DNA of 64,000 nt from the NCBI RefSeq assembly GCF_006345805.1, contig NW_021833114.1:1-64000 (forward strand), written 5' to 3'. Below are positions 2,967 to 63,700 of the stretch, piece by piece (within the stretch, counting starts at the first letter, position 1; each line of letters begins with the position of its first letter). Under the pieces are notes generated by a model. That model had not been told where the DNA came from, did no database searches, and saw only the letters and a program-made list of their open reading frames with translations. The DNA is from Octopus sinensis (lineage: Eukaryota). A program made the translations under genes and the position numbers.

Positions 2967-3670
2967 TCAATATTCACTGGATTTTCCATAGAAAGGGACT
3001 ATCTTCGTCGTCGAGTGCACTATATTGTTGTAGTCGAAATCAATATCCTTAATGCATGCAACGTATCTTCCAAAAAATTCATTTGAGGCGCTAGTAGAGA
3101 TCCGTCGCTTTATACTTTGGTTAAATCTAATTAAGAAAATAATTAAAATACAACCTCTCCACTTGACCTTGTACCTATAAATCAATCTTCTCAGCTATGA
3201 AAATAAGCGGTCCCGTCCAAAGTGATTAAGATTATGTTCCGCCTAAATTATATTGAAATAAATTTTAACTTCAACAAATTTGAGCTTCAGCTCCATTTCA
3301 ACCTCGCAAAAAACGCAATTATAGACCAGTTCTATTGTAGAATACAACTCCATTTTCGAATGTAACAGATTCAGAGAGTTTCCTGATTCTGAACCTGTCG
3401 AGGCAGCTCATGCTATCAGGAAATTCTAATTTCTGAATTTTATTCTTTGATATTTTGTATAATACTGAGAATTTCATTAGTTAGTCTCACTATCCGCATA
3501 CTTTCACGCTTCTTTATTTAAACTTTAAAAAACGGATTTTATTAAAATTTATAACTAATTAATCATTTCCAATGACGATTTGTATTAATTTATCATTTTT
3601 TCGATATGATTTTTTGTCAATTTGATGTTGGCGTTTCATTAACGGCGTGTTTCTTTATCGGACTGTGACA
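2967..3670 (-). mobile_element. Internally deleted Ginger2-like element, one terminus left
   Basis: FNQSIKRRISTSASN...YNNIVHSTT and EHNLNHFGRDR fragments; terminus ...CGGACTGTGACA ends at 3670. Confidence 0.75.
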
Positions 3671-3675
3671 TAATA

Positions 3676-5340
3676 TGTGACATGGTTTGCGTGATACCTA
3701 TGGGCCGCGCGATACCTGACGTGACCTTGCAGCTTAACTATTGTAATTAATATTAAACTTCAAAGAATAATAACTTGTTAATTATTTTTTAAGTCTGGAC
3801 ATTGGCACAATCGAAATTTCGCTCATCGAATTTTTTATCTATTAAATTTGAATGTTTAAACTACCTCAACGCGATTGTTTGATAAAATACTGATAATTTC
3901 TGCAGATGGATAATATGGAGATTCAAACTTATTCAGTCGCAATCTTTTCGGACTTGTAAACGAATAATTACAATCATCTACATATAGAAATTCAAATTAC
4001 ATGAATTTTCAATTGGACTCGGACAATTGTTTGCATCATCGACTTGATCAGGACTCAACAAATCATTACTTGAATTATCTAAGGAATAATTTTATAATTA
4101 CAACCATAAAATATTGTATTTATTCCACTTATTCCCCGGTATCTTTCAAAAGGGCTCTCATTAGAAGATGAGTGGACAGAAATGTTATAACTGTACACTG
4201 CATTTTCTAATTTTTCCAGCCACTTTTTATTATCATTGTCGATCATTTTTGCCATTTTTCTTGTAATTGACTGGTTGAAGCGTTCGACAATCCCTTGTGA
4301 GCGGGGATTGTTTGGCCTTCCGTGAATTCGTTTGATATTGAATTCCTCACATAGATTGGTCATTTCACGATTCTTGAATTCAGTCCCATTATCGGACTGA
4401 AGAAATTGACACGGACCATTTAAGAAAAATAAGGTTTTCACAAACTTCATTTGAGGACTTAGTGTAGAGCGGCCTCGCAAATGCAAATCTATAAAAATTG
4501 TTAAAAAAACTAACCTGCTATATACGTCAATGACCGTTAAAATCCATTTAAAATTTTTATTTATAGTAGAAAAACTTTTCAGATCTATAAGATATATCTG
4601 AAATCTTTCATTTGGGCAAGATGCAAAGACATGGTTATTTATATCTCCAATCTAGGATTTAAAAAAATTAAAACTTTTAAGGGTCGCGCAAATTTACAAA
4701 TTTCACAGTTTCGAATGACTTTTCGAATAATCTCATTTTTAACTGTGAAATATCGTTGTCGACATTCATATTCAATTTTGTTAACTCCTCCATGCAAGAA
4801 GTCATGCAAACTTTTAGCAACGATCTCCATTTCGGGTTCATTGTCCAGACAAATCACTAGCTTGTGATCTGAATTCGCACATTTAAGATACAATCTATAC
4901 ATTTACAATTTGTATGATACCTTTCATTAATTACAGTAAAATTTTCAATTTTCTTAACTAGTCTATATTTTTTTTGCTTTGTAAGATGTTCAGGAAATTT
5001 ATCCTGTAAAACATCTTTTAAAATTTGATATTCCAAACTATTCTTTACATAACCTTTGTACGAGGACATTGCTGCAAAACATACTTGCACGCTAGAAATA
5101 ACTCAAGAAATTTAGGTTTTCCACCAAAAAAATTAATTTCTGATAATTAAATTCCTACAAATATAATTTTTTGTCAAAATGAGAGAGTCTTTAGCTAATT
5201 TAGTAAATTATTAAATGATAAGAATGAGTCGCGGTCTAATTAAAAGATTTATAATTTAATCCCATCAATGTCATAATTGCACATTTCAAGGTCACGTCAG
5301 GTATCGCGCGGCCCATAGGTATCGCGCAAACCATGTCACA
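3676..5340 (-). mobile_element. Full-length Ginger2/TDD-like DNA transposon, integrase frameshifted
   Basis: About 54-bp TIRs TGTGACATGGTTTGCG... / ...CGCAAACCATGTCACA; TSD TAATA (3671-3675, 5341-5345); HHCC (HDFLH..CEIC) and rve core LQSDNGTEF..GRPNNPRSQGIVERFN; micro-intron near 4489-4515. Confidence 0.92.
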
Positions 5341-5406
5341 TAATATTATCTATTAATTCGATTGTCATCTATTTCATAAAAATTACATTTTTATTTTAAT
5401 AAAAAG

Positions 5407-5451
5407 TTGTCGGTCCACTCAACGGCGTGGTCCATTCAGCGAACGGTGACA
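5407..5451. mobile_element. Solo Ginger2-like terminus (same family as 32897/35280)
   Basis: GTCCACTCAACGGCGTGGTCCATTCAGCGAACGGTGACA resembles 35241-35280. Confidence 0.7.
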
Positions 5452-5481
5452 ATAAATAATCAATTATTTATTATGTCAGAC

Positions 5482-7436
5482 AATTATTTATTCGAATCAT
5501 ATATGCGGGATTCTCTTCGAAATGTTGTGTTCCAGCCTCTGAGAGGCAGAGATGATATTGACAATCTCGATGATCACCTTAGATCGTCAATCATAAAATT
5601 CCTGGATGTTTATGCATTAAAAAATGTATGGAAACCTAAAGGAACGCAAAAGCGGATGAATTCGAAACTTGTCATTCTGATCAGAACGAAAGGTACTCTG
5701 AAAATCGCAGGAAAAGATGTCGGGTTGAGTCAATTAAATGTCGCCTGGAATTGGAGATCGACAAGATAAAATCTACTATTGCAAAAATTGCCAAGACTGA
5801 GATCGAAAGTAAATGGAGGTCTGAATGCAGAAAACTGGATAAGCAAAACCTTAATTTCTAGAAAGCATATCAATGCCTTACCAGAAATGATCCCAAAGGA
5901 TTTGAAATTTCACTAAAAGAACCAGACGGGAAATATATCTCCTCTGATCGTATCCCGGAAGTACTCAGGAACCAACTCTGTCAGGTTCAAGAGGTCGAAT
6001 CTACCGTTCCACGAGGGAGTTATGACCAAATTGTGAAGAAGCTTGGTCCTTCGCAATTATCGGAGGGACCATTATGTGGGGCGATAACACAGGAAGAGGT
6101 TGAAAATGCAATTGCTGGGTTGAAAAACAAGGCGCCTGGCTTCGACTACATCCATCAGATGTTGTTAAAGAAGGCCTCTGAAATCTTGATAAAAGCACTG
6201 ACTATGTTGTTTCACGCCAGCTGGACGTTCGGACACCTTCCATCGGCGTGGAAGCATACGATTGTTCGAATGATTCCAAAATTTGGTAAATCAACACTGC
6301 TAGCAGAGAACTACTTCTCTAAGACAATGGAAAAGATTGTCTTTAACAGATTCTCTGGTCATATAGAATCACAAAATTTGCTTTTACCCGAACAATGGGG
6401 ATTTCGTGAAGGAAGATCCACAGGGGACTGCCTCAGAGAGTTAGAGCACCAATTATCTCGAGCTGACAGAAATAAAGCATGGCTAACTGTGGTGTGTCTA
6501 GACCTGGCCAAAGCCTTCGATAGCGTGTGGCACCTGGGCCTACTCCCCAGAGTCCATGACACCGGAGCCGGGATCTATCGATGGCTGGAGAGGTTCTTGT
6601 CAGGAAGACAATCATTTGTCCGCTGTGGAAACCGCCTATCGGGGTGTGTGGAACTTAGAAGGGGAGTCCCGAAGGGATCTATCTTGAGTCCACTTCTGTT
6701 CAACCTCTTCTTGGCGGACATTCCTCTGCCGTCGACACGTACTGGCAAGCTCGTCATCTATGCTGACGATATCCTGGTCATGGATACCTCAAAAAGGATA
6801 TCGCAGTCTTGGAGACGACTTAAATCATACATTGCAACGCTAAAGATGTGGACTATAGAGAAGGGTTTGACCCTAGCACCGGAGAAGGGCACCATTTCAT
6901 GGTTGCGGAGAGGGAGTCGCTATGCGGAGTCGTGTGCATATGCGATGAGTAGTTATGTGATAAATCTCTCGAAAAGCAAAAATCTTTATTACCTGGGAGC
7001 AACCATCAACTGTCGTGGCTCGTACGCAGATCATATAGCAAATCAAAGAAAGAGGAGTGTGCGAATTCTCAAAAGCTTAACCAGGTTTCATCTGGATCCG
7101 GAAACGTACATCTACGTATACAAAACGTGTGTGCAGCCAGTCCTCACATATGGCTACGAGGGCTGGTATGGTACGGAGGAGAGTGACTACCTGATCGAAC
7201 AGTTGGAAAAGACAAGACGTTTCGCTATGAAATTGGCTTACGGAGTACAACTTGACGGAAGGTTAAAAGACTAACAAAAATCCTCTGTGTCCACGATCCG
7301 GATGGTCTTGGAGAATTGTTGTCAACTATGACTACAATTGGGGATACGCATGGAAAGAGACACTTCGGTGCCTTGTTTTTATCTCCCCGTTAATGATTTC
7401 TTCCTTGTTTTTCTTTTCAGTCAATAAATTCTATTC
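5482..7436 (+). mobile_element. 5'-truncated non-LTR retrotransposon (Jockey/I-group-like) with RT ORF 6033-7274
   Basis: KAPGFD, QWGFREGRST, LDLAKAFDSVWH, GVPKGSILSP, YADD; AATAAA plus (TTCTA)n tail; 13-bp TSD TATTATGTCAGAC (5469-5481, 7437-7449). Confidence 0.9.
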
Positions 7437-7489
7437 TATTATGTCAGACTAATTTTTTAAATTTCTATTTTTTTCGGCCATTTGTGACA

Positions 7490-7530
7490 AGTGTAGATTA
7501 TTCGGCGTGTATTTTATTCGGGCTGTGACA
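7490..7530. mobile_element. Solo Ginger2-like terminus
   Basis: GTGTAGATTATTCGGCGTGTATTTTATTCGGGCTGTGACA: 16-bp doublet plus GTGACA end. Confidence 0.65.
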
Positions 7531-8311: not shown

Positions 8312-9703
8312 GGGCCGGATTAAAAAAATTTTAGGCTCCGCGGGCCAGACTATTTATTTTTGATTTAACAAAATTCATACTATGATTTTTAATTTATAAT
8401 TTTAATTTAAAATCATTTAACAACACATTTATTAATTTTTATAATTAAAATATGTTCCAGAAACTTGACATCTTTTCTGAGTCGCATTTCAAATCAATAA
8501 TTTCCAATTGTAAGTTAGCTGCAAGATGTGTAATATTTGCAGTGAATGGTGATCGAAAAACAGTAAATTCTTTTTCAAGTTCACGAAAAAGTTACAAACG
8601 TGTCTCAAACTATTGAAGTAATCCTGTTATGTTCACTTTATAACGACTCATATCAACATTCGATGTGGTGGAAATTACACTTTTTAAACAAGAAAAATGC
8701 TCAGTGTTTCCCACTGTCAATTGTGTCTCCCATAACATTAGCTTCACGGTGAAAGCTTGTATGCATTCGAAATATTGTGTAACAACTTTATTTCGTCCTT
8801 GCAAATTTTTGTTAAGTGTGTTCAGGTGTTCTGTAATATCCACCAAAAATGCCAAGTTTAGCAACCAATCAAGAGATTCCAATTCTGGTAAAGGTTTGTT
8901 TTTTGCAAACATGAAGTGTTTGATTTCTTCTTTTAAATCGAAAAATCTCTTCAATAACAAACCTCGACTTAACCAGCTGCCTCACTATCATTTCGAAATT
9001 TGGAAAAAGAAGATTGCTGATTCCGCAAACATGCAAGTAGTGCATTGTACTTCTTTTTTCTAATTTTTCCCATCAAATTATTCATGATCATCGTGGGTTT
9101 GGTAATGTCGTCAAATGTTATATTCTTTGACAACTGAAATTTCTTGTCTACAGACCAAACAAGTAGGTTTCCGATTTAAATCGGCAAAGAAATATTCCAG
9201 TTTCCACTTTTTTGAAAATATCTGCATTCTGTATCAACCTTACGTTATGTTGAAAAAGGCATCAGCACAAGACAAGAAAAACAATTAGAATAATATAAAT
9301 CTAAAAATATATTCATTTAAATCGGGAAGTGCATCCATCCACAAGTGCACGAAGGACCACCGCCAAATCGGCTGGCTGTACCAGAGGATATCGATCGCAA
9401 TCTTGCGAGGTAACTCGCTTGCAATCCGAGGTGCAGCCACTGCCGACACTTAATTAGCTATTTTGAAGAACTCTTTTTGATTAATACCTTGTCTCTATTC
9501 ATTTAAATAAAATTATTAAACAATTAATTATTTTTTAAGTAATAATTTTTTTATTTATATTCTAGAATCTAGATTCTTGTATTTTTATTTGGTGTTAAAC
9601 AATAATTTTAGATTTTAAATACACTTTTAAACTTTTACCGCGGGCCATTTGAGATCGTCCGCGGGCCAGCTCTGGCCCGGGGGCCGTATCTTTGACACCC
9701 CCG
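8312..9703 (-). mobile_element. Internally deleted Buster/SPIN-type hAT element
   Basis: ORF 8610-8960 LAFLVDITEHLNTLN.NLQG (GTF2IRD2/Buster-like); terminus TTTGACACCCCCG; GGGCC-rich subtermini; target GTGTAAG(G) on both sides. Confidence 0.85.
9323..9495 (+). mobile_element. 3' stub of CRE-clade LINE inside the hAT
   Basis: WLYQRISIAILRGNS; 13-bp TSD TATTCATTTAAAT (9310-9322, 9496-9508). Confidence 0.8.
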
Positions 9704-10260
9704 GTGTAAGGCTTCGCATTTTGCCAAAGAGTTACAACTTAGTAACTTTAAAAATTCTAATGGATTTTCGGCAAAATTCAAAAAGAGACACGGTTTTAGA
9801 ATGCTAAAATTACATGGAGAGATGCGAACTGATAGAGAAGTTGACATTAATTTAAAGGAAGAAATTTCTAAATCGTATAAGCTTGATCTAATTTATAATT
9901 TGGATGAAACTGTATTATACTACAAGCTTATTCTATCGAAAAGCGTATGCTGAAACCGATTCCAAGGATACAAAAATTTTAAAGACCGTGTGTCTATTAT
10001 GCTTTGTTCAAACATGAACGGAAGTCATAAATTGAAACCTGTGATGATTGGAAAACCGAAAGTCTCTAGATGTTTTAGAAATTTTGACTATGAATGTCTT
10101 GTCTCATATTATAGCTCGCAGAAAGCTTGGATGACTGGATCTATTTTTATTGATTGGATTATTAGCTTTGATCTCCAGCTTAAAATTAAAAAGAAGAAAA
10201 TTTTATTGCTAATAGACCAGTGTCCTGCACATTCTTTTCTTCAAAACTTGGATTGTATTA

Positions 10261-10868
10261 TGTCGCGAGCGCAGCGCGCGACCGAGCGCTAGACGCGACT
10301 TTGACACCTAACAAGCCTATCATCAACAAATATATTTATTAAATTATTTAAAATTTTAACATGATTTAAAATTAAAATTGAAATAACTTAAGTTTTCCAT
10401 TGAATCCCATAAAATAATTTATAAGTAGACCTTAATAGAAAAAGTAAAATCAATGAATACTGAACGCTAATTTGGTTTAGGTTGTGAGGGGGGTAATAAT
10501 TTGACAGATCTCATTGCTATTTTTTCGTTTTAATCTCTAAAATTAGGTCTTCCAATCAAAAATGAACTGTGCAGACAGGCTTGCTCCTTCAGAAGATTCT
10601 TGTTTTGACATTTTTATAAATTATGAAGCATTTAGATTTTTTCTCATTATTCTAAAATATCAATTATGAATTTTAAAATATTATTTTTATTTATGAAATC
10701 GGTTTTAAAGCTCATTCTGCTTTGGCATCGATTTTAATTTTTGTTATCGAATATATTTAATCCCAAATACAAGCCTGGGTATTTGTCAATTTATAGATTT
10801 TTTGATTGATCGGATCTAGAAATTGAGTGGTCGCTCGCTGCGCTCGGTCGCTCGCTGCGCTCGCGACA
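10261..10868. mobile_element. Non-autonomous Ginger2-like element (MITE)
   Basis: TIRs TGTCGCGAGCGCAGCG.../...CGCTGCGCTCGCGACA; TSD TATTA; removal restores the Tigger frame LDC-IKILFFPKNSTGLLQPMD. Confidence 0.92.
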
Positions 10869-11480
10869 TATTAAGATTTTATTTTTTCCTAAAAATTCTA
10901 CTGGATTACTACAACCAATGGATATTGGAATTATAAAAACTTTCAAGACTTATTTCATGAGAAGAAAGCTACAGTACTTAACTGATTTGCTGGAGACTGA
11001 AAATATTTCTGTATTCAATTCATACAAAAAATTGACATTAAAAGATGCAATTTTGTTTGTTGATATGGTTTGGGGTGACGTATCTACTGAAACCATTCAA
11101 AATTGTTTTAAGATTTTAAATAAATCTAGTCACGAAAATTCATTAATTGAACATTATGACATTGAAATTGAAAGAACTGATATTTTCGATCCTTTAATGA
11201 GTGAAGATTTTTTAGGTATTGAATGCACAGAAGATCAAGATATAAACGAAAATTGTTTACAAGAGGATCAAGAGTCTGAAAGTAGCGACGAAGAGATAAA
11301 AATCATATATCCACTTGATAGAAAAGATATTGCAAGAAGATTAACTGAAATAGAAAGGGAAGTTTACTGTAATGCAGAAACTGAGAATGATGTTTTACTC
11401 ATTACTGCAATAAGAAATTACAAAGCAAAGTTAAAAAGAGCCAATAAAAAGGAATTGGATTGAATTTTTTTAATAAAATT

Positions 11481-13156
11481 TGTCACAGTCCAGACGTGCG
11501 TCACGCCGGACGTGAGTCACTTGTTAAAAATTTATAAAAATAAATAAAAAATACCTAAATAGATATACCTTACTCCAATTTTACCATATTAGTGTTTTTT
11601 ATGTCTTTTTTTGGATAAAAGTTCATATTATTCACCCACAAAAAACAAACATAACGCATTTTTGACTCGGCATAACGTTTTATCGATTAACTTCAATTTT
11701 TTTTATTTAAAAAAAATTTTAAAATATTAAAAATTATTTTTTTGATTTCCTTAGCCGACTAAAATGTACTTTCTCAATAATATCCCCCTCCTCATTTTCT
11801 AAGTCCAATGTGTTTCCGTCCTGTTTTATCACTCTGTATGCAGATGTATCTATCTGGTCATACAGAGGATATTTTCTTGTGTTTTCATTTACATCCTGAT
11901 CCATCCGTAAAAGTGCGTGATCTCCAACTGATATTTCCTCTTCATCAAATCTCCATCTTCTCCTTTTTTTTCATTTTTTCACCCGCACTTTGCAAATTGT
12001 TCAGTACATCTTCTTGCATTCTATTCACTTCTTCGCTTTCATACACAAAATCTACCTCTTCGTATTCATTTTCTCCTTATCGTAAAATAATTTCATAATT
12101 ACCAGTAAAAGCAAATAAAGACTGCATAATCTGATCATCTAGTTTTTTTTTCATATCCCACTCCCATAAAAATATTAAACGGAATATGCTTCGTGGTGTC
12201 ATGTTTAGAATTATTGTATTGGTAGACAATTCTTTTAATAATTGTATGATATTCTCCGAACATTCCATTTGAAGCGCTTGTAGAAGAGATCCATCGTTTT
12301 ATAGATTGGTTAAATTTTAAAATTAACAAAATAAATATACCGTTCTACCTGACCTTGTATCCATGGGGCACGTGGTCTTCCACATATGTGCTTAGTTCCA
12401 AACCTTGTACACATTTCCTCCATCATATTGTTTTTGAACTCCTTTCCATTATCTGTTTGCAAGATTAATGGAGCTCCAATCATCATAAAAATGTTTTCAA
12501 TAATAGGCACTATTTCTGTGCCGCATTTGGTTTTCGCAAGTTCTACAACCCCATATTTTGAAAAAGAGTCAATTAAAACAAGAATCTGGATAAATCGTAA
12601 TAAATACCCATTTAAAGTTGTTATTTATTTCGGAATATCTTCTTAAATCTATCAAATCAGCAATGTATCTATCTCTTGGGCCTTTTGCAATAATAGGAGT
12701 GATAACCTGCCTTGTGACTAGCCTCTTCCAAAATGTACATAATTGTGCTCACACTAATCATAATTAAATAAATTGATACTTCTATATATTTCAGCTTTAA
12801 CTCTTGATCTTCTATGCAGAATAATCTGACTTTTTTATTCTTTTGGTATATGTAGGCTATATTTTCCTCAATAAGTATTCGGTTAGCAATCCTACGTAAT
12901 CTAAAACGTTCTCTTCTACTGATTCCGTCATCAAATGATCCAAATTGTTTAAAAGTTCTTATTTTCAATAAATCCTCTTGTGATAGTGTAATTAGAAACA
13001 TTTGATAACGTGCAAAATTTAAAAATAAAATACAATAATATATAATATTAATTAAGAAATTGTGATTTTTGAATGATTTTATTATATAAAAAATATAAAA
13101 ATATCCAAAATCTGACCAAGTGACTCACGTCCGGCGTGACTCACGTCTGGACTGTA
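11481..13156 (-). mobile_element. Ginger2/TDD-like transposon with intron-containing integrase pseudogene (ATG 13001)
   Basis: TIRs TGTCACAGTCCAGACGTG.../...CACGTCTGGACTGT(gac)A; TSD AAATT if a 3-nt deletion is allowed; PRDRYIADLIDL, LIDSFSKY, LQTDNGKEFKN, GRPRAPWIQGQVER. Confidence 0.9.
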
Positions 13157-20133: not shown

Positions 20134-20194
20134 CATTATACTTTCAAGTTGTTTTGTATTTGGCATATTTTAATTGATTGGTTAGATCTAAAAA

Positions 20195-21340: not shown

Positions 21341-21765
21341 CTACACTTTCTACACTTTTTATTGACCAAAGGACAAGGGTAAGCCAGTTAATTATAATCC
21401 CCCGTGATCCCCCGATTCATGCGAGGGAGATCCTTCTGAAAGGTTCGATCCTGCCCACAATGAACGGACTGAGACGACGATGTCCCAGGGTCAGAGTTCT
21501 AGAAGTCCTTTTTGGGTAGGCATTAGGTGCCTCCTGAGCGTTTCCATATCCGATTGGAAGTTCCAACTGACAGGGTGGACTCCATAACGCCACGCTAAGA
21601 CCGCAAGGAAGGTAAGAGATCCCCATTTTCCAACTGTGTCGTGTCAGAAGTACTCGTTGCCTCACGGGCAGGGTAACGAGAATTGACCCCCAGATGAAAC
21701 TAGCTTCCTTCGGAATCGAACTCACGACTGTCCAGATCCATTATCCATAGCTTAGTCTTCAGCCA
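21341..21765 (-). mobile_element. 5'-truncated LINE 3' end (second copy at about 42225-42440, + strand)
   Basis: 16-bp TSD ATGTTAAATAAATGTT (21325-21340, 21766-21781); AATAAA plus (AAAGTGTAG)2 tail; about 190 bp highly similar to 42230-42420. Confidence 0.8.
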
Positions 21766-21848
21766 ATGTTAAATAAATGTTGTATTTAATTAATTAATTA
21801 GTACGATAATATAATAAAAAATAAAACCAACTTTTATTTTCTAATGAT

Positions 21849-22619
21849 TTGCCATCTGATGTGACCTGCCAATCGGAGTGGACGTCGAAAGTCCACGCCA
21901 ATACGTTTTCATGCCTAAAGGAAACCATGGACCAGAGAAGGTTGGCTTGTTTACAAGCGGGCAACCAGCCCCTAAGCGGCGCGTGGCTAAACTGTTACCC
22001 TTGTAATACAACTGGCTGCCTTCTTAATGATGAAGCCGTAAGAATTGGAGTTTGTCTGCGCCTCGGTCTACGCGTTTATGAAAAACACCAATGCCTGTGC
22101 GGCGTGTGGACTGACGAGTTTGGATATCACTCCCTCTCATGTCGAAACGGAATTGGACGTTCCTCACGGCATTCCGAACTGAACCAGATCATCTGTCGAT
22201 CTCTTCGAACTGCGGGATTCCACACACAATTGGAACCTGCAGTGATTTTTGTAGAGGACGGCAGAAGACCCGATGGGATGACCACATTTCCATTCCAGAG
22301 GGGAAAGTGTCTGGTTTGGGACGTCACGTGTGTGAACTCCTTTTCCAATCAGAATATCAAATTATGCATCGAGAATCCTGGAGCCCCGTCTGAACGGGCT
22401 GAGAAAAGAAAAGCTGAGAAATACGCTGGAATTGGGAATGGGAGAGTGTTTGTCCCCCTGGCTGTTGAGACGTCAGGAATACAGGGGCCTTCTGCTCGGA
22501 CCCTACTCCAGCGTATTGCCTCATTAATCGAAAGGGTTACCGGCGACCCGTGTGAGCACCGGTATTTAATCGAAAGAATATCTATAGTCAGAGGCAATAC
22601 TCTGGCTATCTGCCAATGA
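21849..22619 (+). mobile_element. CRE-clade non-LTR retrotransposon 3' part (Zn knuckle + RLE endonuclease)
   Basis: SGAWL, LRLGL, C.CG..H.LSC, RH..LN, RPDG, WDVTC, AE.RK..KY, ERISI.RGN. Confidence 0.85.
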
Positions 22620-22684: not shown

Positions 22685-22724
22685 GGTCCGCTCAAAAACC
22701 GGGTTTATTCGAAAACCGGTGACA
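22685..22724. mobile_element. Solo Ginger2-like terminus
   Basis: AAAACCGG doublet with 17-bp period, ending GGTGACA|AATAA. Confidence 0.6.
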
Positions 22725-35280: not shown

Positions 35281-35330
35281 TATTTTATTAATAAATACAT
35301 AATTTAAATTTCACGTTTATTTACATTTTT

Positions 35331-37145: not shown

Positions 37146-37707
37146 CAATAAATGTAAAGATGAGGCAAAAAATTAAGTTCTATAAATGTCAAAATAGTCT
37201 GAAAAGTTTTTGAGGAGGCGGCAATGTAATTCCGAATATTACATTCGTATTCTCCCGCATCTTTTACATACCCCCTATACATTGTCGCTTCCATGACAAA
37301 AATAAATCTCTATAATATTTAAATCTGCGAAACACGGCGATTAAGATTTGCTGAATCTATATATTCACCAATTAATTGTACTAGGAATTATCTATCAACT
37401 TAATAGTTTTGCACTGTCTAGTTTTCCAGGCGAGAGACTGACGCGATCGAGAAAGAGTTAGAGCGTACTGTCGCAAGAGATATCCGCTCAAAAAACCATC
37501 TCGACTCGCGAGCGTCGCCTGTGAATATAGACATCCGAAATCCGGTAATCTCCAAGTTTCGACCAAGTATAAATCTCGACGTATAAGCAATAGATTTTAA
37601 TTATTTTTTCATTATTTATTAATTTAGTTTGATTTTAATGGGATTGTCTATTGGATTGTCTGGATTTTCATATTTTTTAAGAATAAAAATTAAGCCGAAA
37701 AATCGTA

Positions 37708-39518
37708 CAGTTTACCCTCTATTGCTCGCCATTTCTATAACTCGCCACTTTTTTGGAAAAAATGCCATTTTTACTAAGGAAATTCCATTGCTCGCCACGT
37801 TTTAGTATTAAAAAATTAAAATTTATTATTAAAAAAAATAATTTTTTCAAATATTTATACCGCGTGTTTTTTTTTGTAACATGAGGAAGTGCTCAAGATT
37901 ATTTTATGATCAAAAAAGAGAAATTATAAATTATCTTATTGATAATTCTTCTCTAAGTCTAAGGCGTGTTTCAGAAATTTTTTCGTCGCGTTTCAAAAAA
38001 TCAATTTCGAGACGTGCAATTAACGATCTTAAATTGAACAAACAGAAGATTCTTGGAATTAATCCAATTTATGGGAGAAGTTCTCGTTTTTCGAAACTTA
38101 GATATTCAGCAATTGATTCTGAAATTATTGCCTGGATAGATTACATGGAATCTATTGGAGTTTGCCTCAATGATGAGATAATTTGTCGAAAGCAACTGAA
38201 ATTGCTGCGTTAAATCTCTTCGAATTTAAAGCCAGTAAAGGATGGCTTGAAAAGTTCAAAAAAAGGCACAATGTAAAACTAAGAATTTTTCATGGTGAAT
38301 TGGAATATACTGCGGATGAGTTCAAAGACCAAATCGAAGACTTTAAAAAAATTATCTCTTCTAAAATAAATGAATATGGTTCAGAAAATGTTTATAATGC
38401 CGACGAAACCGGCGTATTTTACAAGACCATTCCATCAAAAAGTGTCTGCAGGAAACGCCAACCAGGACAAAAATTACTTAAAGATAGGTTTAACATTTTT
38501 AGCTAATTTTCAGATTTTCATTAATGCTTTGGGCAAATATGACTGGATCCGATAAAAGAACCCCTTTGATGATCGGGCAGTTTAAGAAACCAAGGTGTTT
38601 TAAAAACTTGAACGTTGATGAATATTTACAATACCGGAATTCTTCAAAGGCTTGGATGAACATGGAAATATTTAACGAATGGTTGTATAATTGGAACAAG
38701 ACTCTCAAACAAAAACAAAAAAAGATACTTTTGGTTGTAGACCATTGTCCTTCACATAGAATAACAATCGAATTAAGTGATTCAAATCATTCAAAATCAT
38801 TCAAATCTCATTTCAACAAATTTAAATTTAAACATATAATTGAACAAATAACGCAACTATTGAATGCTATAAAAAATTAACCCTGAAAGATGCAGTCTTA
38901 TTTTCTTATCTAGCCTGGAAAGGTGTGTCAGTGGATAAAATATCAAAATGTTTTCAGCACGCCAAATGGGAAAACAGAATTGAAGAACCTATTATGGGAG
39001 ACCATAAAATAAAAAATTTCGAACAAATTATAGAAAAATTAATGATCACAGATCCCATAAAAGAGAAGGAGTTTATAGACTTTACGTACTCTGAAAATGA
39101 CGAACTTCATGAATTTGTTCAAAACAATAACTATGAAAATAACGATGAAAATGCAATTTTAGACAGTTCAATTACTGAAGATTGTGAAAGAAACAACTGT
39201 ATTACACATCGAGATGCGATAAAATGTATTTTTCACATGACGATAATTTTGATGTGAATATGCTAGAAAGTTTTTTAAAAATGCAAAAAAATATAGAGAA
39301 AAGATCATACAAAAAAACTATAAATGATTGCTTACTTAAAATTTTGGTTTTTTAAATAAATGTTTCGGCTATTTATTTAAATGTTTAGATAGTTAAAAAT
39401 TATAGAAATTTTTTGTTGATAGAAAATAGGATATTGATTATTTCTCTTACTCGCCAAATTCTCTTAGTCGCCAATTTTGGCTTGGTCCCAAAAATGGCGA
39501 GCAATAGAGGGAAGACTT
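37708..39518 (+). mobile_element. Full-length Tigger/pogo element, decayed transposase
   Basis: TIRs CAGTTTACCCTCTATTGCTCGCCATTT / AAATGGCGAGCAATAGAGGGAAGACTT; TA on both sides; FKASKGWLEKFKKRH, NADETG, VDHCPSH; 26-nt intron 38488-38513. Confidence 0.92.
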
Positions 39519-40425
39519 TATTTGTAAACTATTAGGAGCAGAAATTGCAGCCGCATCAACAATAGACAATCCCATTTAAAATTATTCAATGTTGGCCATT
39601 GCATTCCACGTTTTTGAGGTATTTTTTTAATTATATGAGAAGTTTGGCGGGAAACAACGGTTGAAAGAGTAGGTGGTTGGTATATTTGTTAGTTTATTGA
39701 CGATGTGTGTTTTCTTTAATTTATTAATATTAATTATTTATTTCTAACAAGGAATTATTTTAATAAAATTTTAAATAATTTATTCTCTTGTGGTTTATAC
39801 TTGGTCGAAACTTGGAGATTACCCGAAACCCGATCTCCCGGTATCTTGGGAGGAAAAGCAATCAGCTTCATCAGCTACAAGAAGAATAAATTATGATAAC
39901 GCCCAGTTACGCGTTCGCGATGTGACATATTATTTTGGTTATTATCACGTTTATTTACTTTTATTTTTATGAAATTATAATAAAATATTAAACATTTCAT
40001 GTTTATCATATTAATAAACTCTTCCTCGAGTCTACATGCTACTCGAGTAACTCTTACTCATATGAGCACTCTTTCGTCTTTTTAGAGTCTGTCTTTATAT
40101 TCGGAGATTTCATGCACTTCATCAGGAATGCGTGCCCATCTATTTGCATAAGAGTTATCCGCGGGTAAAGGGGAAACTTGAGTAAAGTCAGTGCGATGAT
40201 ATCTGGTATCCTCCTGTTCGCCTCGGCATTTGTCTACCATTGTTCGATTCCGCACCGATATCAGACAATCCTGCTTTCCAATATTTTTTTGTTATTTTTG
40301 TGAATAAATAAAATCCTGACTAAAGTATAGATGAAAGCTTAACTAGGCGATCTCCATAAAAAGAAATTTTATATTTATATATTAATCGTTTTTATAGTTA
40401 TTCATTGTGTGGTGGTATCAGGTCA

Positions 40426-42200: not shown

Positions 42201-42529
42201 CAAAAATTGGAAGCTTTTTTGGCCAATTCAATCAGATATGGAAACGCTCAGGAGGCACTTAATACCTACCAAAAAAAGGACTTCTAGAACTCTGACCCTG
42301 GGACATCGTCGTCTTACTCCGACCATGTGGCCAGGATCGAACCTTTCAGAAGGATCTCCCTCGCTTGAATCGGGGATCACGGGGATTATAATTAACTGAC
42401 TTACTTCGGTCTTTTGGTCATTAAATAAAATAAATAAAAAAATGCAGACAACAATAAGAAAACACGTAAGGGCGCTTAAAATGAACATTTGGTAGTTCAA
42501 ATTTATCATATTATTAAAATATTACCAAA

Positions 42530-46836: not shown

Positions 46837-48071
46837 ATTTTTTTTTTTTTTTCACATATTATATGTAATTAACAAATAGTTATTAACTAACTAAATTCCC
46901 GGCATCGTAAATGGAAACACAGTTTCCACGTACTATGGCCAAGGAAATCCTTTCGAAAAGCCACTTGGACTCGCGTGGGTCGCCCCGTTTATGGGAGATC
47001 ATGCGGCCAAGCTTTTTTAGAAAGGAAGAGACTTTTCGCCGATGACGCCGGAAGTCTCGACGGCGATGGGAGTGAACAGATACCGTTCAGAGAGCTCCTT
47101 GTACTTTCCAATCTTCATCTTCTCGGTTTTGCGAGAGACTGAGCCAGGCTCGACAGCTGAAGAAGGAAGGTTGAGCTCCGAGAAAGTGTCTGAACACGTC
47201 GCATCCCATAACAGAGACTTGCCGAACTCAAACGGGAAAGTCGATAGGCCGTCGGGTCTTTTCCGTCTCCCCTCGCAAGCCCGACGGGTTCGAGGATTGA
47301 TGGGATCCCAGCGGCCGTGAGCCCCCTCTGAATAACGTCGTTAAGTGCTGCATGGCGTGGTGCGCGCCCTGCACTGCGACGACAGGAAAGGGGATGTAGA
47401 CCAAAACGGTCAATGACAGCACCACAACGACATTTGTGTATTTCGCAGATTTCCAATCCAAGACGCAATGATAAACCAATTCGTAGGCAATCTTTGTCTA
47501 GTAGGTTACCGGTGGAAGGGACAGGGAGAGCATCCAGCCAGGCCCCACTCCCTGTGCAGCAGCCTGCGCGGAGACATGCAAGTCTGTGCTGATCGAAATT
47601 TTTGCGTAGATGTACGTCAAGAGCTTCACAAGAAATGGCATCCCATTGAGCTTGGATACACGGGTCACTGGGTCTTTTGTTGTACAATGAATCCCAAAGG
47701 TCCAGAGCGGCCACGTTATCAACTGACATTTTTCGTTCGGGAAGGTTTCTGAGAACGATGTCAGTGAGGGCACGGGATGATGCCAGGGACGAGAGGAAGG
47801 CAGGAAGAGCCAGATAAACGGGCGAACGAAGGCCAATCCCCCCGAGATTAACAGGCAGGGAAGATTGAAGCCACCCCAGAGCGTCGAAATGGATGTTGCA
47901 CAGATACTCGGCTCCAGACTTCAAGATAGAATCGATATCGGATAACAGATTAGGCATGCGAAAACAAGGAGAACTCCTTAGGGTGTACAAAAGCCTCGGA
48001 GTTGAGAAATAGTTACGCAGAAGAAAGAACCCGAGGTGGGCATCAATGAGGGAAAGCCGTTCGATCATCAT
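46837..48071 (-). mobile_element. 5'-truncated CRE-clade LINE with poly(A)
   Basis: LPVNLGGIGL, SGAWLDALP, LRLGL, CRCG..HPLSC, RHAALND, LEP.GL.RGDG; T-run at 46837-46852. Confidence 0.88.
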
Positions 48072-56405: not shown

Positions 56406-59400
56406 TGTCACAGGCCGGAAGCGTTACGGCGCCGGAAGCGTTACACATTTCAATATTCAATAAATAAGTTAATATTAAATATTTAGTAGTAAACAAGGTA
56501 TTTTAAATTTAAAAATATACTTTTTACTCTTTCGACGTCAACTATTTGTAAATCACTCCGAGGCAGAAAACCAACCAGACATAATTATCAGAACGGCGTC
56601 GCTACGTAAGTACAATGTATTCAATAATTGGCTAGCCATTTAACACTATTAATAATTTGTTAAATTAATTAAAGATTTAAAAATCAACAAAAATTATATT
56701 TATTACGCACTTTACAAAAGTTAAGTATTTGTAGGGTGCATTCCGATTTTAATTAGTCGGTAGATGTGAATTCCCTCCATTTTTTTCTCCCCTTTCACTT
56801 TCTAGCGTACATATGTCGCCTTCCCTCTCGATGATCGTGTACTTTTCCATGTGTAATCCGTCATATAATGGATATTGCCTTACATTCGCATCATTTTCTT
56901 GTCTACATAAATTACATGTTTAAATATTGTAACCTAATTATTACCTCCTCTCCTATGCATAAAGGTTCTTCGTCGTACTTCCATCTTCGTCTCTGTGCCA
57001 TTTTTTCCACAGCTTGTAAAATATTTGAGTATGCTTCTTGTCTTGAATTCGTTAGATCATCAAATTCTTCAGTGACACAGTAGAGTTGTTCTAATTCTTC
57101 ATCACTCGTTCTTACTGGAAATTGCATTCCCATAAAGATGTAGAATGGGATATTCCGTGTAGTAGAATGAACAGTATTGTTGTAGTCAAATATGATGTCT
57201 TTGACTTTTTGAAATAGAGATGTAATTTCAGCGGAGCTTTTTGAATAAGCTAACTCGACCATGGCATATTTCGAAAAAGAATCAACAATAACAAGAATCT
57301 AATCGTTTAAGAGAAGGCAAATACCCAATTAAATGAGTCATTAATTTCCGAATATCTTCGGAGATCGACCAGATCGGCGATATACCGGTCTCTACTTCTT
57401 GCAATTATCGGCGTAATAGGTGGCTTTGTTGCTAATGCCTTTTTAGACTAAAAATATAGGAAAAATCGTTACCTGACAAGGGACACATTGGGAAATGACT
57501 TGATTTATTTCGTTTCTTATAATTCCATAGTAGCGTGATCTGAGCTTAGAAAATAAGCGATCTTTACCAAAGTGATTAATATTGTGTTCAACCTATTGAT
57601 ATTGTATTCAAATACATACATCAACAAATTTGCGTCTCAATTCAGTTTCATCCGTACAAAAAAAACGTAATTTTAGATTATTGTGGCAAATGAATGGCGT
57701 TTCGCCTTCAAAAACAAATGACATAGCCAATTTTGCTAGCCTAAATCTTTTCATCTTAGACGATGAATCCTCCGAAAGAAGATCACAGAGGTTTTCTTGA
57801 AATTCTTTGATTTTCTGTAGGGATTCTTTTGTTATTTGCACTAAACGCATTATACACACTTAATAAAATGATTAAAATTTATTCATAATTTATTAATATT
57901 TATAGATATTTGTTCTTTTCAAATGAAATTATTATTGTTTTACGTATTTTTAATTTTTTTTGTTTACATGCGTAACGCTTTAATTTTTTTTGTTTACATA
58001 CACTCTGATCTCCCTGCCCTCATCAAAGAACAAAAGGAGCTAAGACTACAACTGGAAAACACATCTGATCCGAAGAAGAAACAAATCTTACAGAATAGAC
58101 GTTCATCTACCCAGAAAAAAATCAAAATGTTGAACAAGACAAACTTCACTAACAAACTCGACTTAATAGCTGCAGGAATTGAACAGCTAAAGGACTCTTC
58201 AAAAATGTTTACGGCAATCCGCCTACTCAACAGGAAAAAACAAACTAACAAACTCAAAATCCATGACAGCAATGGAAGATTCATCACAAATCCCAAAGAG
58301 CAGGCTGAATATATAGCCTCGTATTTCGAGAGTATATTAACCGCTCACGGAGAAATATCCGATTACACCAGCGGATACACCACTCATCTCAGCCTACCTA
58401 TCACCACCGGTGAAGTATCAACTGCAATAGCCAAACTTAAAAATGGCCGCTCCTCTGGACCGGATGGAATAAATTCAGAACTGTTTAAATACGGACCGCC
58501 TGCACTAACAGACAAACTGGCGGAGCTACTCAATGTATGTTTATGAAAAAGGAATTCCTCGGTCTTGATTCCGGATTATTAATACCGATCCAAAAGCCTA
58601 ACAAGCAGGCTGGGCCTGTCGAAAATCTACGCCCTATAATCTTGCTAAACACCTTACGGAAACTTTTGGGATTAGTTACACTGAACCGAATAAGAGAACA
58701 AGTGGACAACTATCTATCCCCGAGTCATAGTGGATTTAGGACAGGAAGATCCACCGCCGATGCTGTCTGGGCCCACAAGTGGTACTGCGCTATCACCCAG
58801 AGATACAAAAGTGCAACAACAGTCCTGGGAATAGACCTGTCTAGGGCCTTTGACACGGTACGCCGTGGTCTACTCCTCAAAATACTGGAACAATTCCTGG
58901 ACCCTGACTCTGTCAATATGATAAGAGTACTACTATCGAACACAAAGCTCAAGGTGCGGGTCGGCACGGCGTTTTCCCGTGAATTCACGTGCAACGTCGG
59001 TACCCCTCAGGGAGACGCCCTCTCGCCGTTGCTATTCGTGATCTATCTGGAGACGGCACTACGAGACCTTCGAAAATTCTATGCTGGCAATATCGTCGAA
59101 ATTGTATATGCAGATGACGTCGACTTCGTGTCAGACGACAAATCGGCCTTACTTCGACTCCTTGAAGTGGCACCTGCTGAGCTGAACAGATGGTTCCTTA
59201 AAATGAACGTTGGAAAAACCGACATCGTTGAAATCATGAGGATGGAGAGCAGCTCAAGTGAAGCCTGGCGCAAAACGAACAAACTCGGTTCTCTACTTGG
59301 GGACGGCCATGATATTGTCAGAAGAAAGGCTCTCGCTTGGGCCACGATGAACAAGATAAAGAAAGAGTGGATCGGCAAACGACGACTCTGTACGTCACTT

Positions 59401-60133
59401 CGTCTGAGGATGTATGAAGCCTTTGTCAAACCAATCCTGACATATAATTCGGCGACCTGGGGAATGTCTAGTACTGAACAACGTGGACTCGATTCTTTTC
59501 ACCGCAGGCAACTTAGATCCCTACTGGGATTGAACTGGCCTATAAGAATCAACCAGGAATCGCTATACAATAGATGCAGAACTGGCCCTCTGAGTGTGGA
59601 AATCGTCAATATGCGGTGGAGGTTATTTGGCCATATTCTACGAATGGACATGCTTGCCCCAGCTAACATAGCAATGGAGGGCTACTTCCTGAAAGAGGGA
59701 TCGAGCTTCCGTGGACGTCCACGTGTTACGCTGCCGGAAACACTTGACGGAGACCTGAAATGTGTGAAGAAAAGGCTAAGGAGTGGTGAGGATCTGGACG
59801 AGCTGAGGAAACTCGCTCACGACAGAGGAGGTTGGAGGAGGCTGGTTCAAAGGATTGTTTTTAATGCTGCACGAGTAAAATTATAACTAATATGATTCTA
59901 CGTATGTTGCAAATAATAATAATAATGCGTAACGCTTCCGGCGCCGTAACGCTTCCGGACTGCGACAAAGCATTATACACACTTAATAAAATGATTAAAA
60001 TTTATTCATAATTTATTAATATTTATAGATATTTGTTCTTTTCAAATGAAATTATTATTGTTTTACGTATTTTTAATTTTTTTTGTTTACATGCGTAACG
60101 CTTCCGGCGCCGTAACGCTTCCGGACTGCGACA
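56406..60133 (-). mobile_element. Ginger2/TDD-like element with duplicated end and RTE insertion
   Basis: TIRs TGTCACAGGCCGGAAGCGTTAC.../...GTAACGCTTCCGGACTGCGACA; TSD AATAA (56401-56405, 60134-60138); integrase exons about 56760-57850 (HNINHFGKDR, CVPC, DRYIADLVDL, VDSFSKY) with the central core deleted. Confidence 0.92.
58000..59925 (+). mobile_element. 5'-truncated RTE-clade LINE, RT nearly intact (one frameshift near 58540)
   Basis: LRPIILL, SGFRTGRST, IDLSRAFD, GTPQGDALSP, YADD, RWRLFGHILR; (TAA)n tail; TSD ATGCGTAACGCTT. Confidence 0.93.
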
Positions 60134-60483: not shown

Positions 60484-60849
60484 ATGACTTTTTTAAATAA
60501 AAAACCAGAAATTGATTCCGAAACAGATACATGGAGGCGTAACCTACTAGAGTCTAAAAAACTTTTCATTTTTTCCAGTAAATCAAAGACTCCACAAAAA
60601 GAAAATTGCAAAACTAAAAATAATTATTTGACAAGTAAACTTCAAAATATGGAAACAAAAATCTTGGAAAAAAATAAACTAATTGAATCAGTCAACTCGT
60701 CAAAGCTAGAAAAAAAACATTCTCCAATAATCGAGTCAATATTGTTTAACCAAGAATTTCGAACGATGCCTCGATTGGCCAAAGTGGAACCTGTTTTGCG
60801 AATAAATAGATTTTTTGAAAAGAAAAAAATATGGAAACCAAGAAAATAA
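60484..60849 (+). CDS. Hypothetical 121-aa Lys-rich protein
   Basis: ATG-initiated ORF, no recognised motif. Confidence 0.3.
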   Translation: MTFLNKKPEIDSETDTWRRNLLESKKLFIFSSKSKTPQKENCKTKNNYLTSKLQNMETKILEKNKLIESVNSSKLEKKHSPIIESILFNQEFRTMPRLAKVEPVLRINRFFEKKKIWKPRK

Positions 60850-61059
60850 AAAATGCAATAATATTTGTCTAATGAACTTTTATATTTGACAAATAACTTG
60901 TAATTAATTTAGATAATCTATAAACGTCAAAAATAACACAATAATTATAAATTCGATATTTTCAACACTTATATAGAACGGAAATACCTGTTACTTTCAA
61001 AAATAAACTAAAAATTTTAATTCTAATCTATTTAAAATGTAATGCAGAATGTCAAATCG

Positions 61060-61640
61060 AAACAGACTGACATAACATTCACGTTTCGTACTGAGTTGTA
61101 AAGTCGGAGTTAATTCTCTGACAGTACACTCCACATTTTTTAACAGACCAAAATGATTTTAAATTTAATGTAAATTGGTCCTTTATTGCTCTTTAAAGAA
61201 TATCCTGAAAATTTTCAAACAATGGACTGAATGTTTTCATAGAGATGTAAATTTTTCAATAAAAGGCATGATAATTCCTTTTACATTTATTAGATTAATA
61301 TTGTTTCTTTGCAAGCTTATAACTAAGGGGTATTTCATGTCTCCACAAATATTGTTCGACAGTTTTAAAAATTGTTAACCCTCTTGTGTCGAGTTCAAGG
61401 TGTTCAAACTATAAGAATTCTTCTTGAAATAGATCATTTTGATTAATAAAACGTATGTAAATTAATAAAAGTGCAACACTATCGGTAAATGTCGATTCAT
61501 CAATTTGAATTTAATATTTTGTTGTTCTTAAGAATGCACATAAAGTTTCTTCGATATCAGATGCCATTCCATCAATTCTGGAAGAGACTGAAATATTACT
61601 CAAAGGAATTGATGAAATTATTTATTCAGAATCGCAATCA
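61060..61640 (-). mobile_element. Buster/ZBED5-type hAT transposase pseudogene fragment
   Basis: IPLSN.SV..RI..MA.DIE, IQIDEST, LL.YIRFI...EEFL with in-frame stops. Confidence 0.8.
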
Positions 61641-62329
61641 ACCATTAAATTTAGAAATTTTTTGTTTAGGTAAACACCAGACAATTTGAATTTTGAATTC
61701 ATAGAAAAGCACGTGATAATAATTTACAAAAACTAATACAAATATTTATAATAAAGAAAAATAAAATTCCAGCATCCCGTTAAAAATCACTGCGCTAGAC
61801 TAATTCCTGAAGCAAACAGCAGGAAAAAACTTAATAGAAAATGTAATTTTATGCTTAAGGAAAATATATTTCTATTCGACCGATATACAAATGATAAAAA
61901 GTGCATATAAGTTTGAGACACATAAAACAAATACGATAATTTAAACTATTTCACACCGCTTTCCTTCTCTATAAATATCAAAAATTTTTTAATCAAAACC
62001 ATTTTTCAATTTTGTATGGATTATGTTTTTCAAAAGATATTTTATTGTCTTTTAAATATTTAGTTATTCTGAAACTTATTTTTCACTGTAAATTTTATTT
62101 TTTAGATTAGAATAAGATCAATTTTTGATATTGTTGAATGGTCAAGAATTTGAATAAAAACCTTCAAACTAAAACAGACCATTTTGAAAATCGTAAATTG
62201 ACCTTGTAAGTATATACACGAGATTTTTAATTAATTTACATAATAAAGAACCGACAAATTAACACAATGTTCATAAAATAAGAAAATATTCAGGTGGAAA
62301 ATTAATTCAATAGAGATAATATGGCGAAA

Positions 62330-63470
62330 CCAATTATTTATACGGAAACCAGGCATTGGGTAAAGTAACTCCTGACGAGGTCGAGTTTTTCGCCAATTGT
62401 ATGATTGTAATATCTGGGTTCAGAGGGATTTTAGTAGATGTCCTTGGAAAAGAATCCTACAGGCTCATAGAGATAAAGTTAATACACGAAAAGAACTATG
62501 AAAACGAAACGATCCGTTGCGAATAAAAGAAACATCACAGAGAGAAATAGATCTTACAAGTGATGTAATTGCACGCTTTTTTCTATCTCGAATACTCACT
62601 CCTGACAGAGTCTCATCAAAAGACCGAGATCGTGGCTTCGGATCAAAACTTTTGCATAGTGAGGTGACCTTGAAATTAGTTGAGAAAATCTCTGATTCAA
62701 AATATTTAGGAATGTCTTCTAATGATATAAGATTTTCAATATTACTATGAACTTTGGACTGATCATCAGAAGTTGGAGAACTGTTGTAATGAGTGTGAGA
62801 TGATTCCATAGTCTCTGAATAGAGAATATCATTCTCATCGAGTTCAATTGGGAGATAGTAATGGAATTTTGTCACAAACTCATAAACATGTCTGTGTCTA
62901 GCCATGCTGATATAATGCTCACAGTCTGGTATCTAAACAGAATACAACTACAATAACAACGTCAAATGTCGTGGATGATATATTTCTCGATACTTTGTCA
63001 TCGTCCTCATTCACTGAATGGAGAAAACTATGAGACTTTCCCTGTTTTCTGTGGAGACTAAGATTTCCTCCCATTATATTCATGGAACCGTCATCAAGCA
63101 GCCACCTATGCTTCACGATGCGTATTTGGATAATTGAATACTCTTAACAACGCCATACGCACTTTATCACTCCTATTCTTTCATGTGATTATATTGCTGA
63201 TAGTAATGACAGTAATCAATAAATGGGTGGCAATCGATTTAGACCAGTGTTAGCAGGTGCTTCCACGTCCTATAACTGTTTTCTGTTATTATTTAATTTA
63301 TTTAAAATCAGAATTAAAGGAATCGAATTATCTTCGAGACAGGTTATTGTGTCGATAGAATTCTGTGAAGGAGACAATGCAATTAATAATCCATTAAAAT
63401 AGCAGTATTCAATAGTAATTAAATTAATGAGTGCCATTTGAGTAGCTGTGTCTATCACGGCTGTCATTTT
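62330..63470 (-). CDS. Unidentified multi-exon gene with Ser-rich C-terminus
   Basis: ORFs 62465-62905, 62919-63116 and 63270-63467 can be joined by plausible micro-introns; no family recognised. Confidence 0.4.
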
Positions 63471-63644
63471 ATTTTACAATTTATGTGAGTACGTGACTCA
63501 TTCATTATGGGTAACAGTGCCCATAAACTTACTTTTAGCATTAAATTTAGTCAATAAATCATTAAATTTACTCCATCAGGTCAAATCCGCTGGCCAAAAC
63601 ATCGTTTGCTTGATATGAACAGCTAATATTTATTACAAATATTA

Positions 63645-63700
63645 TGTCACATGCCCCACGCGTTACCATGCCCCACGCGTTACCATTGCTCTAAATTTCT
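63645..63700. mobile_element. Ginger2-like terminus (partner probably beyond window)
   Basis: TATTA|TGTCA followed by the perfect doublet (CATGCCCCACGCGTTAC)2. Confidence 0.8.

Follow-up and report, generated by a model that had tools for sequence, protein, structure and literature searches.

The window analysed here, a 64,000-bp stretch of Octopus sinensis contig NW_021833114.1 (assembly GCF_006345805.1, positions 1 to 64,000), contains the bodies and isolated ends of small transposons whose terminal inverted repeats (TIRs) share a TGTSRC tip followed by two direct copies of a short unit (the doublet). We are confident that these elements are cut-and-paste DNA transposons with inverted ends and an integrase-type transposase. 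A sequence-only reading of the window had described them as a radiation of Ginger2/TDD-like, KRBA2-type transposons with a common end design, and the Pfam domains, target site duplications (TSDs), tips, and doublets all agree with that description. All 16 of the terminal positions cited in that reading are element ends (the one at 39927 is counted but doubtful); the copies and ends to which they belong are listed here, with end families numbered F and other loci numbered L:

3630-3670, minus strand: 5′ end of an F22 copy, TGTCAC plus two repeats with a 16-bp period; identical to the end of L125
3671-3675, no strand: TSD TAATA of the 3676-5340 copy, directly adjoining the F22 end
3676-5340, minus strand: complete F3 copy, 1,665 bp, TIR of about 54 bp, period 18
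5341-5345, no strand: TSD TAATA
5410-5451, minus strand: solo end related to F23 (85% over 40 bp), weak doublet
7490-7530, minus strand: solo F21 5′ end, period 16
10261-10868, no strand: non-coding F4 copy, 608 bp; TSD TATTA at 10256-10260 and 10869-10873
11481-13156, minus strand: F19 copy, 1,676 bp, TSD AAATT, period 16; 5′ tip without GTC
22685-22724, minus strand: solo end related to F10 (80%); single match in the assembly
32897-35280, plus strand: F23 copy without TSD, transposase N-terminus kept
39890-39927, minus strand: doubtful solo end, TGTCAC plus one repeat-like 16-mer ending in AC
56406-60133, minus strand: F18 copy, TSD AATAA, period 17
63645-64000, plus strand: start of a non-coding F1 copy of 771 bp, perfect 17-bp doublet, TSD TATTA; the copy ends at contig base 64415

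Fifteen of the 16 cited ends read TGT[CG][AG]C; the exception, at 13156, lacks GTC (TACAGTCC). The four 5-bp TSDs reported for the window are exact: TAATA (3676/5340), TATTA (10261/10868), AAATT (11481/13156), and AATAA (56406/60133); a fifth complete copy, which starts at 63645 and runs beyond the window, has TATTA. No TSD was found at 32897/35280 (flanks TTTAC and TATTT). That the TSDs consist of A and T only is true of the four window copies, but does not hold as a general rule, since only 53 of 71 copies conform.

About 1.09 Mb of the same assembly was surveyed through two protein searches, 80 hand-picked stretches, and pattern searches; the protein searches scored 150 of 2,898 and 150 of 1,911 candidates, so the copy and family counts are lower bounds, and two rows with inverted duplications (L137 and L010) were excluded. 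We identified at least 71 distinct complete copies with a 5-bp TSD, in at least 26 end families; uninterrupted copies are 1.6-2.1 kb long and contain one gene. Among 72 end pairs at least 80% alike, picked without regard to TSD, 60 have a 5-bp TSD and 12 have none, and a TSD length of 4 or 6 bp was rejected because none of the 72 has only 4 or 6. The insertion target is A-TAWTA-T (ATAWTAT), and TAWTA duplications make up 23 of 39 in one clade (mostly F3 and F1) versus 5 of 32 in the others. The median identity of copies within families is 94-99.6% (70% in F2), so several families have moved recently.

The transposases contain the PF17921 (Integrase_H2C2) and PF00665 (rve) domains, both above the Pfam cut-off; the D-D-E triad is intact in 16 of 25 family representatives (broken or missing in the others), and core identity between families is 22-71%, with a median of 41%. 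The GPY/F motif (GP[YF]) is absent from all seven full-length relatives checked and from the C-terminal pieces of the families, with degenerate equivalents (ESPYYP, YPLYD) at its place. Several relatives have an extension of about 70 aa with GxYP...F...LY (a possible YPYY-like pattern) before the HHCC motif. An AlphaFold model of a natural 468-aa open reading frame (ORF) from L104 (pLDDT 80) shows an N-terminal helix-helix-beta extension, HHCC, the core, and an SH3-like end, and its best structural matches, from the extension onward, are foamy-virus and Ty3 integrases; against the prototype foamy virus (PFV) integrase it gives VIA Z 20.8 with 291 aligned and a root mean square deviation of 14.7 over mobile domains (about 2 for the core). 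Ginger elements are the DNA transposons closest to the integrases of retrotransposons with long terminal repeats (LTRs) and of retroviruses.

The ends used below were chosen by a TSD plus an end-to-end match, or by likeness to such ends, and the doublet score was not used. Behind the tip (TGTSRC, bp 1-6), unit 1 occupies bp 7-22 and unit 2 lies 16-18 bp further in; all 52 family-representative ends begin with TGT and have A or G at position 5, and base 4 is C or G, varying even within one copy. Of 155 distinct end sequences, 68% have a doublet score of at least 2.5, versus 1.5% of 1,234 other TGTSRC sites (all loci) and 0.3% of 3,100 shuffles, which rules out chance or low complexity as the origin of the doublets. 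Their periods are 17 (53 ends), 16 (34), and 18 (19). Within the window there are 87 TGT[CG][AG]C sites, and the top 13 doublet scores belong to 11 cited ends, to a site at 59967 (an internal copy of the 60133 end), and to the 7530 end read backwards; weaker cited ends rank 15th (3670), 17th (22724), and 25th (5451), and 39927 falls outside the top 30. The two direct motif copies with a period of 16-18 bp are therefore far above chance, except that 39927 has no clean second copy. The motif, which had been called CpG-rich, is GC-rich (55%; 0.31-0.74 per family), but CpG itself is only mildly enriched (observed/expected 1.26).

The motif does differ from family to family: units 1 and 2 are 76% identical within an end versus 37-39% between families (75% versus 42% with equal freedom of period), and in 40 of the 50 ends compared, which exclude two whose unit 2 is deleted, the closest unit 2 comes from the same family. 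Because the doublet is present in all clades, the two units must change together. At bp 10-11 the units of one end agree at 0.88 and 0.80, and at bp 18-22 at 0.84-0.96, versus 0.66-0.78 at bp 12-17, and a per-family Wilcoxon test gives p 0.027 (16 up and 6 down of 26); bp 19-20 are conserved within families (0.84, 0.94) versus 0.23 and 0.31 between families. The constrained patches at bp 10-11 and 18-22 are about one helical turn apart, and may both face the same side of the DNA.

In F3, ATGG, G18, and the final TAC (CAC in two) are nearly fixed across 44 ends and the middle varies. Independently inserted F3 copies, 97-99% identical, match each other at about 65% in the 3′ doublet, and one 3′ doublet variant is close to the sister family F2; we considered the L004-type copies as F2/F3 chimeras and rejected this, since the body is F3 throughout and the doublet alone differs. 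Variation is far greater in the doublet than in the body of the element. In F3 unit 1 has been written over unit 2 (L023/L024/L123), perfect F1 doublets have collapsed to one unit at 2 of 12 independent sites, and single-unit 3′ ends occur in F7, F12, and F16. The F3 overwriting and the F1 collapse mean that copying errors can homogenise units without selection, so selection is needed only for which positions are spared.

As had been anticipated, the clustering of TIRs follows the integrase phylogeny (Mantel r 0.35, p 0.001; 25 families, without F5, which has a short core, and the gene-less F1 and F22), and each end type with at least two gene-bearing copies corresponds to one transposase clade (trees by FastTree and fast IQ-TREE, with ten near-identical F3 rows left out of the copy tree). 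The tree outlier L070 proved to be an F26 copy nested in an F21 copy. Facing ends have a common TSD in 74 of 90 same-family pairs versus 1 of 28 cross-family pairs (about 7% expected by chance), and nesting accounts for that one. L074, a candidate hybrid element, was rejected: here an F17 copy has inserted close to an F5 end, and the 5-mer in common is a coincidence. There is no unexplained hybrid among the 28 cross-family pairs. The 3′ core GGAC is common to F9, F10, F11, F12, F23, F24, and X108, and the 3′ core TTAC to F1, F2, F5, F6, F17, and F18, across two deep clades. The earlier proposal of lock-and-key co-evolution is thus partly supported, by the tracking (which common descent alone would also give) and by the concerted units, but one lock per family is not supported, given the edge-only constraint, the cores shared across clades, and the variation in F3.

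In a comparison of protein domains with end positions, identity of the N-terminal extension correlates with bp 18-22 once core identity is removed (20 families; r 0.31, p 0.001). For bp 7-11 the correlation is with core identity (r 0.22, p 0.006), and no partial correlation with either stretch was seen for the C-terminal domain. Partial Mantel tests are liberal for related taxa. The bp 18-22 signal maps to basic helix 2 of the extension (r 0.33, p 0.004; leave-one-out 0.25-0.40), and we tentatively suggest, from these correlations, that this helix may read bp 18-22. A pairing of an aromatic helix-2 residue with the final AC was seen post hoc and is not retained (exceptions F8, F13, F17, and F19). 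Donors of no more than 16 bp suffice for PFV integrase, which depends on its extension domain to complex viral DNA (PMC3738965); this fits one protomer per unit.

We favour, with modest confidence, the view that the two 16-bp repeats of each end are tandem transposase docking sites, read mainly at their edges. Judging from homology, elements would be excised at the TG..CA tips and inserted with a 5-bp stagger by a foamy-virus-like intasome. One protomer would cover the tip and unit 1, and a second protomer, or distal domains, would engage unit 2, as TnsB tiles Tn7 ends, with the basic helix of the N-terminal extension perhaps reading bp 18-22. Whole-unit copying and slippage would homogenise the units and selection would preserve the edges; since the units are putative transposase sites read at their edges, the edge bases would sort the families into roughly a dozen compatibility groups, in place of 26 locks that are each wholly private. 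Several observations weigh against this view. Single-unit ends exist (the 2 of 12 F1 sites and the 3′ ends of F7, F12, and F16), so unit 2 may be dispensable, or its loss came after insertion. Congruence between tree and ends is expected from common descent alone, and the hybrid-end screen has low power and says nothing on mobilisation in trans. Within the largest clade (14 families) the helix 2 correlation is lost (r 0.03), a window of the core gives r 0.24 as well, and the top of a residue-base column scan (0.497, against a 95% permutation limit of 0.491) is not clearly significant and reflects the deep split, so the helix signal may be shared ancestry. A fold search with the isolated N-terminal domain gave no convincing match (best Z 2.9, the PFV extension scoring 2.8).

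A bolder form of the same idea, in which at least 26 mutually orthogonal transposase-end pairs coexist in one small parasite genome, with a foamy-virus-like helix reading a 5-bp key in two tandem sites, seems doubtful to us; if true, it would place Tn7-style end recognition on a retroviral-type intasome and provide a natural panel of compact, non-interfering integrases. A strict lock-and-key, in which the whole repeat is private to each family and cross-mobilisation does not occur, is unlikely: it would account for units that evolve in concert, for multi-copy end types that each match their own transposase clade (the nested insertion being the sole exception), and for the 28 cross-family pairs without an unexplained hybrid, but not for GGAC cores in seven families and TTAC cores in six across two deep clades, nor for 97-99% identical F3 copies that moved with 3′ doublets about 65% alike, and TnsB itself tiles repeated sites by preference, not by strict specificity (PMC9308760). 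Less probable still is neutral concerted evolution, in which nothing but the TGTSRC tip and a spacer rich in GC is important, and slippage or end-to-end conversion, drift, and broad cross-mobilisation do the rest; whole-unit copying in F3, the collapse of perfect F1 doublets to singlets, and a doublet far more variable than the body speak for it, whereas conversion is not expected to spare bp 10-11 and 18-22 in family after family, unit length and period (16-18 bp) are kept across transposases of 41% median core identity, and hybrid ends are absent. It is very improbable that the inner unit (or each of the two) is a site for a host factor or for control of transcription (promoter or autoregulation) and not for transpososome assembly. 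Single-unit ends do occur, and the units are GC-rich islands in AT-rich DNA, but the doublet is symmetric at both ends and kept in the non-coding F1 and F4, and a single host factor would not permit a sequence that differs from family to family. If the units are docking sites read at their edges, the 25 natural transposase-end pairs, with fixed geometry and few variable constrained bases, would make the recognition code directly testable, and may be a source of small, partly orthogonal gene-delivery transposases.

Ginger2/TDD elements are the closest described system by end and domain. They have TGTNR tips, TIRs of about 45-300 bp, an RTATAY target, no YPYY motif ahead of the zinc finger, and no GPY/F or protease domain, with a TSD of 4 bp in animal families and 5 bp in TDD-4/5 (PMC2836005); KRBA2 and SCAND3 derive from Ginger2 (PMC3575427), and NCBI labels relatives of our transposases KRAB-A domain-containing protein 2-like. 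The elements described here share the TGTNR tips, HHCC plus DDE, and the lack of GPY/F and protease domains; TIRs of the window copies (about 41-55 bp) touch the lower limit of the Ginger2 range or fall slightly short of it, the target is likewise an AT-rich palindrome (A-TAWTA-T here, with one more central base than RTATAY), and the 5-bp TSD is that of TDD-4/5, unlike the 4 bp of the animal families. They differ in length (1.6-2.1 kb versus 2.7-6.7 kb), in having at least 26 families in one genome, in the N-terminal extension with its possible YPYY-like pattern, and in the internal tandem sites, which the available portions of the Ginger2/TDD texts do not describe. The accessible literature yielded no account of tandem sites at the ends of Ginger elements, although Repbase, Dfam, or the TDD-4 paper may contain one; the term "subterminal" is absent from the portions of the Ginger-related texts that were checked, and no study was found on how Ginger elements recognise their ends. 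The Tn7-like end design is apparently undescribed for Ginger elements.

Other integrase-bearing groups were rejected. Ginger1 has a 4-bp CCGG/CCGT TSD, a GPY/F motif, and a C-terminal OTU/Ulp1 domain, none of which is seen here, the protein ending in an SH3-like beta domain and the Pfam domains of close relatives being rve and H2C2 only. IS3EU/GingerRoot (TA..TA ends, 6-bp TSD, no HHCC; PMC10045372, PMC6839031) is ruled out by the TGT ends, the 5-bp TSD, and HHCC; IS481EU (no HHCC, TSD of about 4, 15, or 25 bp; PMC10045372) by HHCC and the 5-bp TSD; and Polinton/Maverick (AG ends, 6-bp TSD, a DNA polymerase gene; PMC6839031) by the TGT ends, the 5-bp TSD, and the 1.6-2.1 kb single-gene structure. 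An LTR retrotransposon or provirus does not fit either, since the ends are inverted and complete copies hold the transposase gene only; the reverse transcriptase ORFs in two window copies are insertions of long interspersed nuclear elements (LINEs), absent from sister copies.

In their end design the elements work like Tn7 and CRISPR-associated transposons (CASTs), which have a short TGT end, a 5-bp TSD, and an array of transposase sites of about 18-22 bp (PMC9308760, PMC9723613). Divergence of those sites defines compatibility groups in CASTs; here the repeat array is seen, and a binding role would follow by analogy. The Tn7 and CAST systems are bacterial and multi-protein (TnsABC), with helix-turn-helix (HTH)/winged-helix binding and asymmetric ends of three to four sites, whereas here there is one eukaryotic, intron-bearing gene and symmetric ends with two 16-bp units. 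The PFV and Ty3 integrases (PDB 3oy9 and 7q5b), to which the model is structurally closest, its N-terminal extension domain included, use LTR ends made by reverse transcription that have a single short attachment site, whereas our elements have inverted ends and no gag, reverse transcriptase, or LTR. Mariner lineages coexist via diverged TIRs (PMC4161770), as do CAST compatibility groups (PMC9723613); many mariner lineages occur per genome, TIR blocks follow the transposase tree, and diverged TIRs lose binding (PMC4161770), but mariner is a DD34D superfamily with a TA target, HTH binding, and a single site per 28-30-bp TIR. According to these accounts, specificity through diverged ends is established elsewhere, and is not conceptually new.

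Integrase-like proteins of about 400-470 aa from microsporidia and other organisms, known here from proteins alone, have the same domain order and length (37-57% identity), and the families are intermixed with database proteins at five or more points in the tree, the named ones being from the microsporidia Dictyocoela, Nosema, Vairimorpha, and Enteropsectra. The interleaving indicates several old lineages, each expanded locally, and not one burst; it also points to old or repeated exchange among parasites. Ginger has been reported from microsporidia (PMC5751038). F26 (L104:3210-4613, L070, L119) has an intron-free 468-aa ORF, unlike the intron-rich families, and clusters with proteins of Nosema/Vairimorpha, at 37-46% identity to those that are named; it is possibly a later arrival from a microsporidian-type source. 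Among more distant relatives, 80 metagenome loci (23-36% identity) gave no TIR plus TSD pair, and 21 viral-contig loci held distant relatives only.

Among the window copies, a near-whole but broken transposase gene is found only in 3676-5340, 11481-13156, and 56406-60133, and 10261-10868 is non-coding. The gene in the F3 copy (minus strand) retains the N-terminal extension, HHCC, rve, and a C-terminal piece, and its first catalytic Asp reads Tyr; that in the F19 copy has introns of about 22-26 nt. The F22 copy has transposase fragments at 2967-3236, and its other end was not found; the 39927 end has no partner and no other copy in the assembly. A LINE reverse transcriptase ORF (33684-35072) lies inside the F23 copy, and another LINE ORF (58489-59886) was inserted into the F18 copy with a duplication that includes a second 5′ doublet (59924-59967). 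For F18 the 5′ end has 13 exact assembly matches and the 3′ end one, among the matches listed, and most of its copies (L307-L316) are cut by insertions or deletions. In F1, 9 of the 12 copies examined have a partner end with TSD, no autonomous partner was found, and most copies have, about 190 bp inward of the end, a TTAGGG/GGGTAAA tract that resembles telomere repeats (window 63830-63980; L141-L154). The F3 copy lies exactly 5 bp beside the F22 end (…ACA TAATA TGT…, 3664-3682), and a second event of this kind is seen at L013:259-265, which makes two among 236 ends; a TSD and the old end that it adjoins together restore the favoured target sequence. Other studies (runs X5, X6, and X8) have contigs that are 80-99% alike to the F3 element (query 3600-5500). 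The X5 and X6 contigs include the F3/F22 ends in different flanking DNA, so related copies are also present beyond this assembly.

The contig likely comes from a co-assembled, fast-evolving parasite, probably a dicyemid. The window is gene-dense (pellino, radial spoke protein 3, and phospholipase C by Pfam), its introns are about 20-30 nt long, also inside transposase genes, identity of its pellino with the animal pellinos listed is 31-46% throughout (36% for octopus), and none of the listed matches falls on C1-C30 (four of these measured, 15-213 Mb; C31 is 22 kb), the window being C9585 of the 2.7-Gb assembly; gene density, short introns, a long-branch pellino, and absence from chromosome-scale scaffolds together suggest parasite origin. 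Dicyemids live as ciliated parasites in the renal sacs of cephalopods, and have a genome of 67.5 Mb, with 49% repeats and introns of 38 bp on average (PMC6736024). The protein collection labels near-identical transposases as octopus, and, if contigs of this kind are co-assembled from a parasite, these host labels likely name the wrong organism.

The window also contains other repeats. Three pogo/Tigger-type transposase genes (HTH_Tnp_Tc5, DDE_1) are located at 9681-11463, 35295-36150, and 37842-39257; the first is split by the 608-bp F4 copy, a copy of identical length occurring in L022, and the third is flanked by a 44-bp inverted pair of another repeat family (37530-37573 and 39794-39837; 25 assembly matches). 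The ORFs at 8610-8981, 21825-22619, and 47115-48071 had no Pfam match; we take the first to resemble a piece of a hAT/SPIN transposase, and the other two presumably resemble the C-terminal part of a non-LTR retroelement protein. A long tandem array at 1432-2900 is open in several frames, and a repeat of about 200 bp is present in two copies of opposite orientation (21358-21556 and 42229-42425), 84-96% alike.

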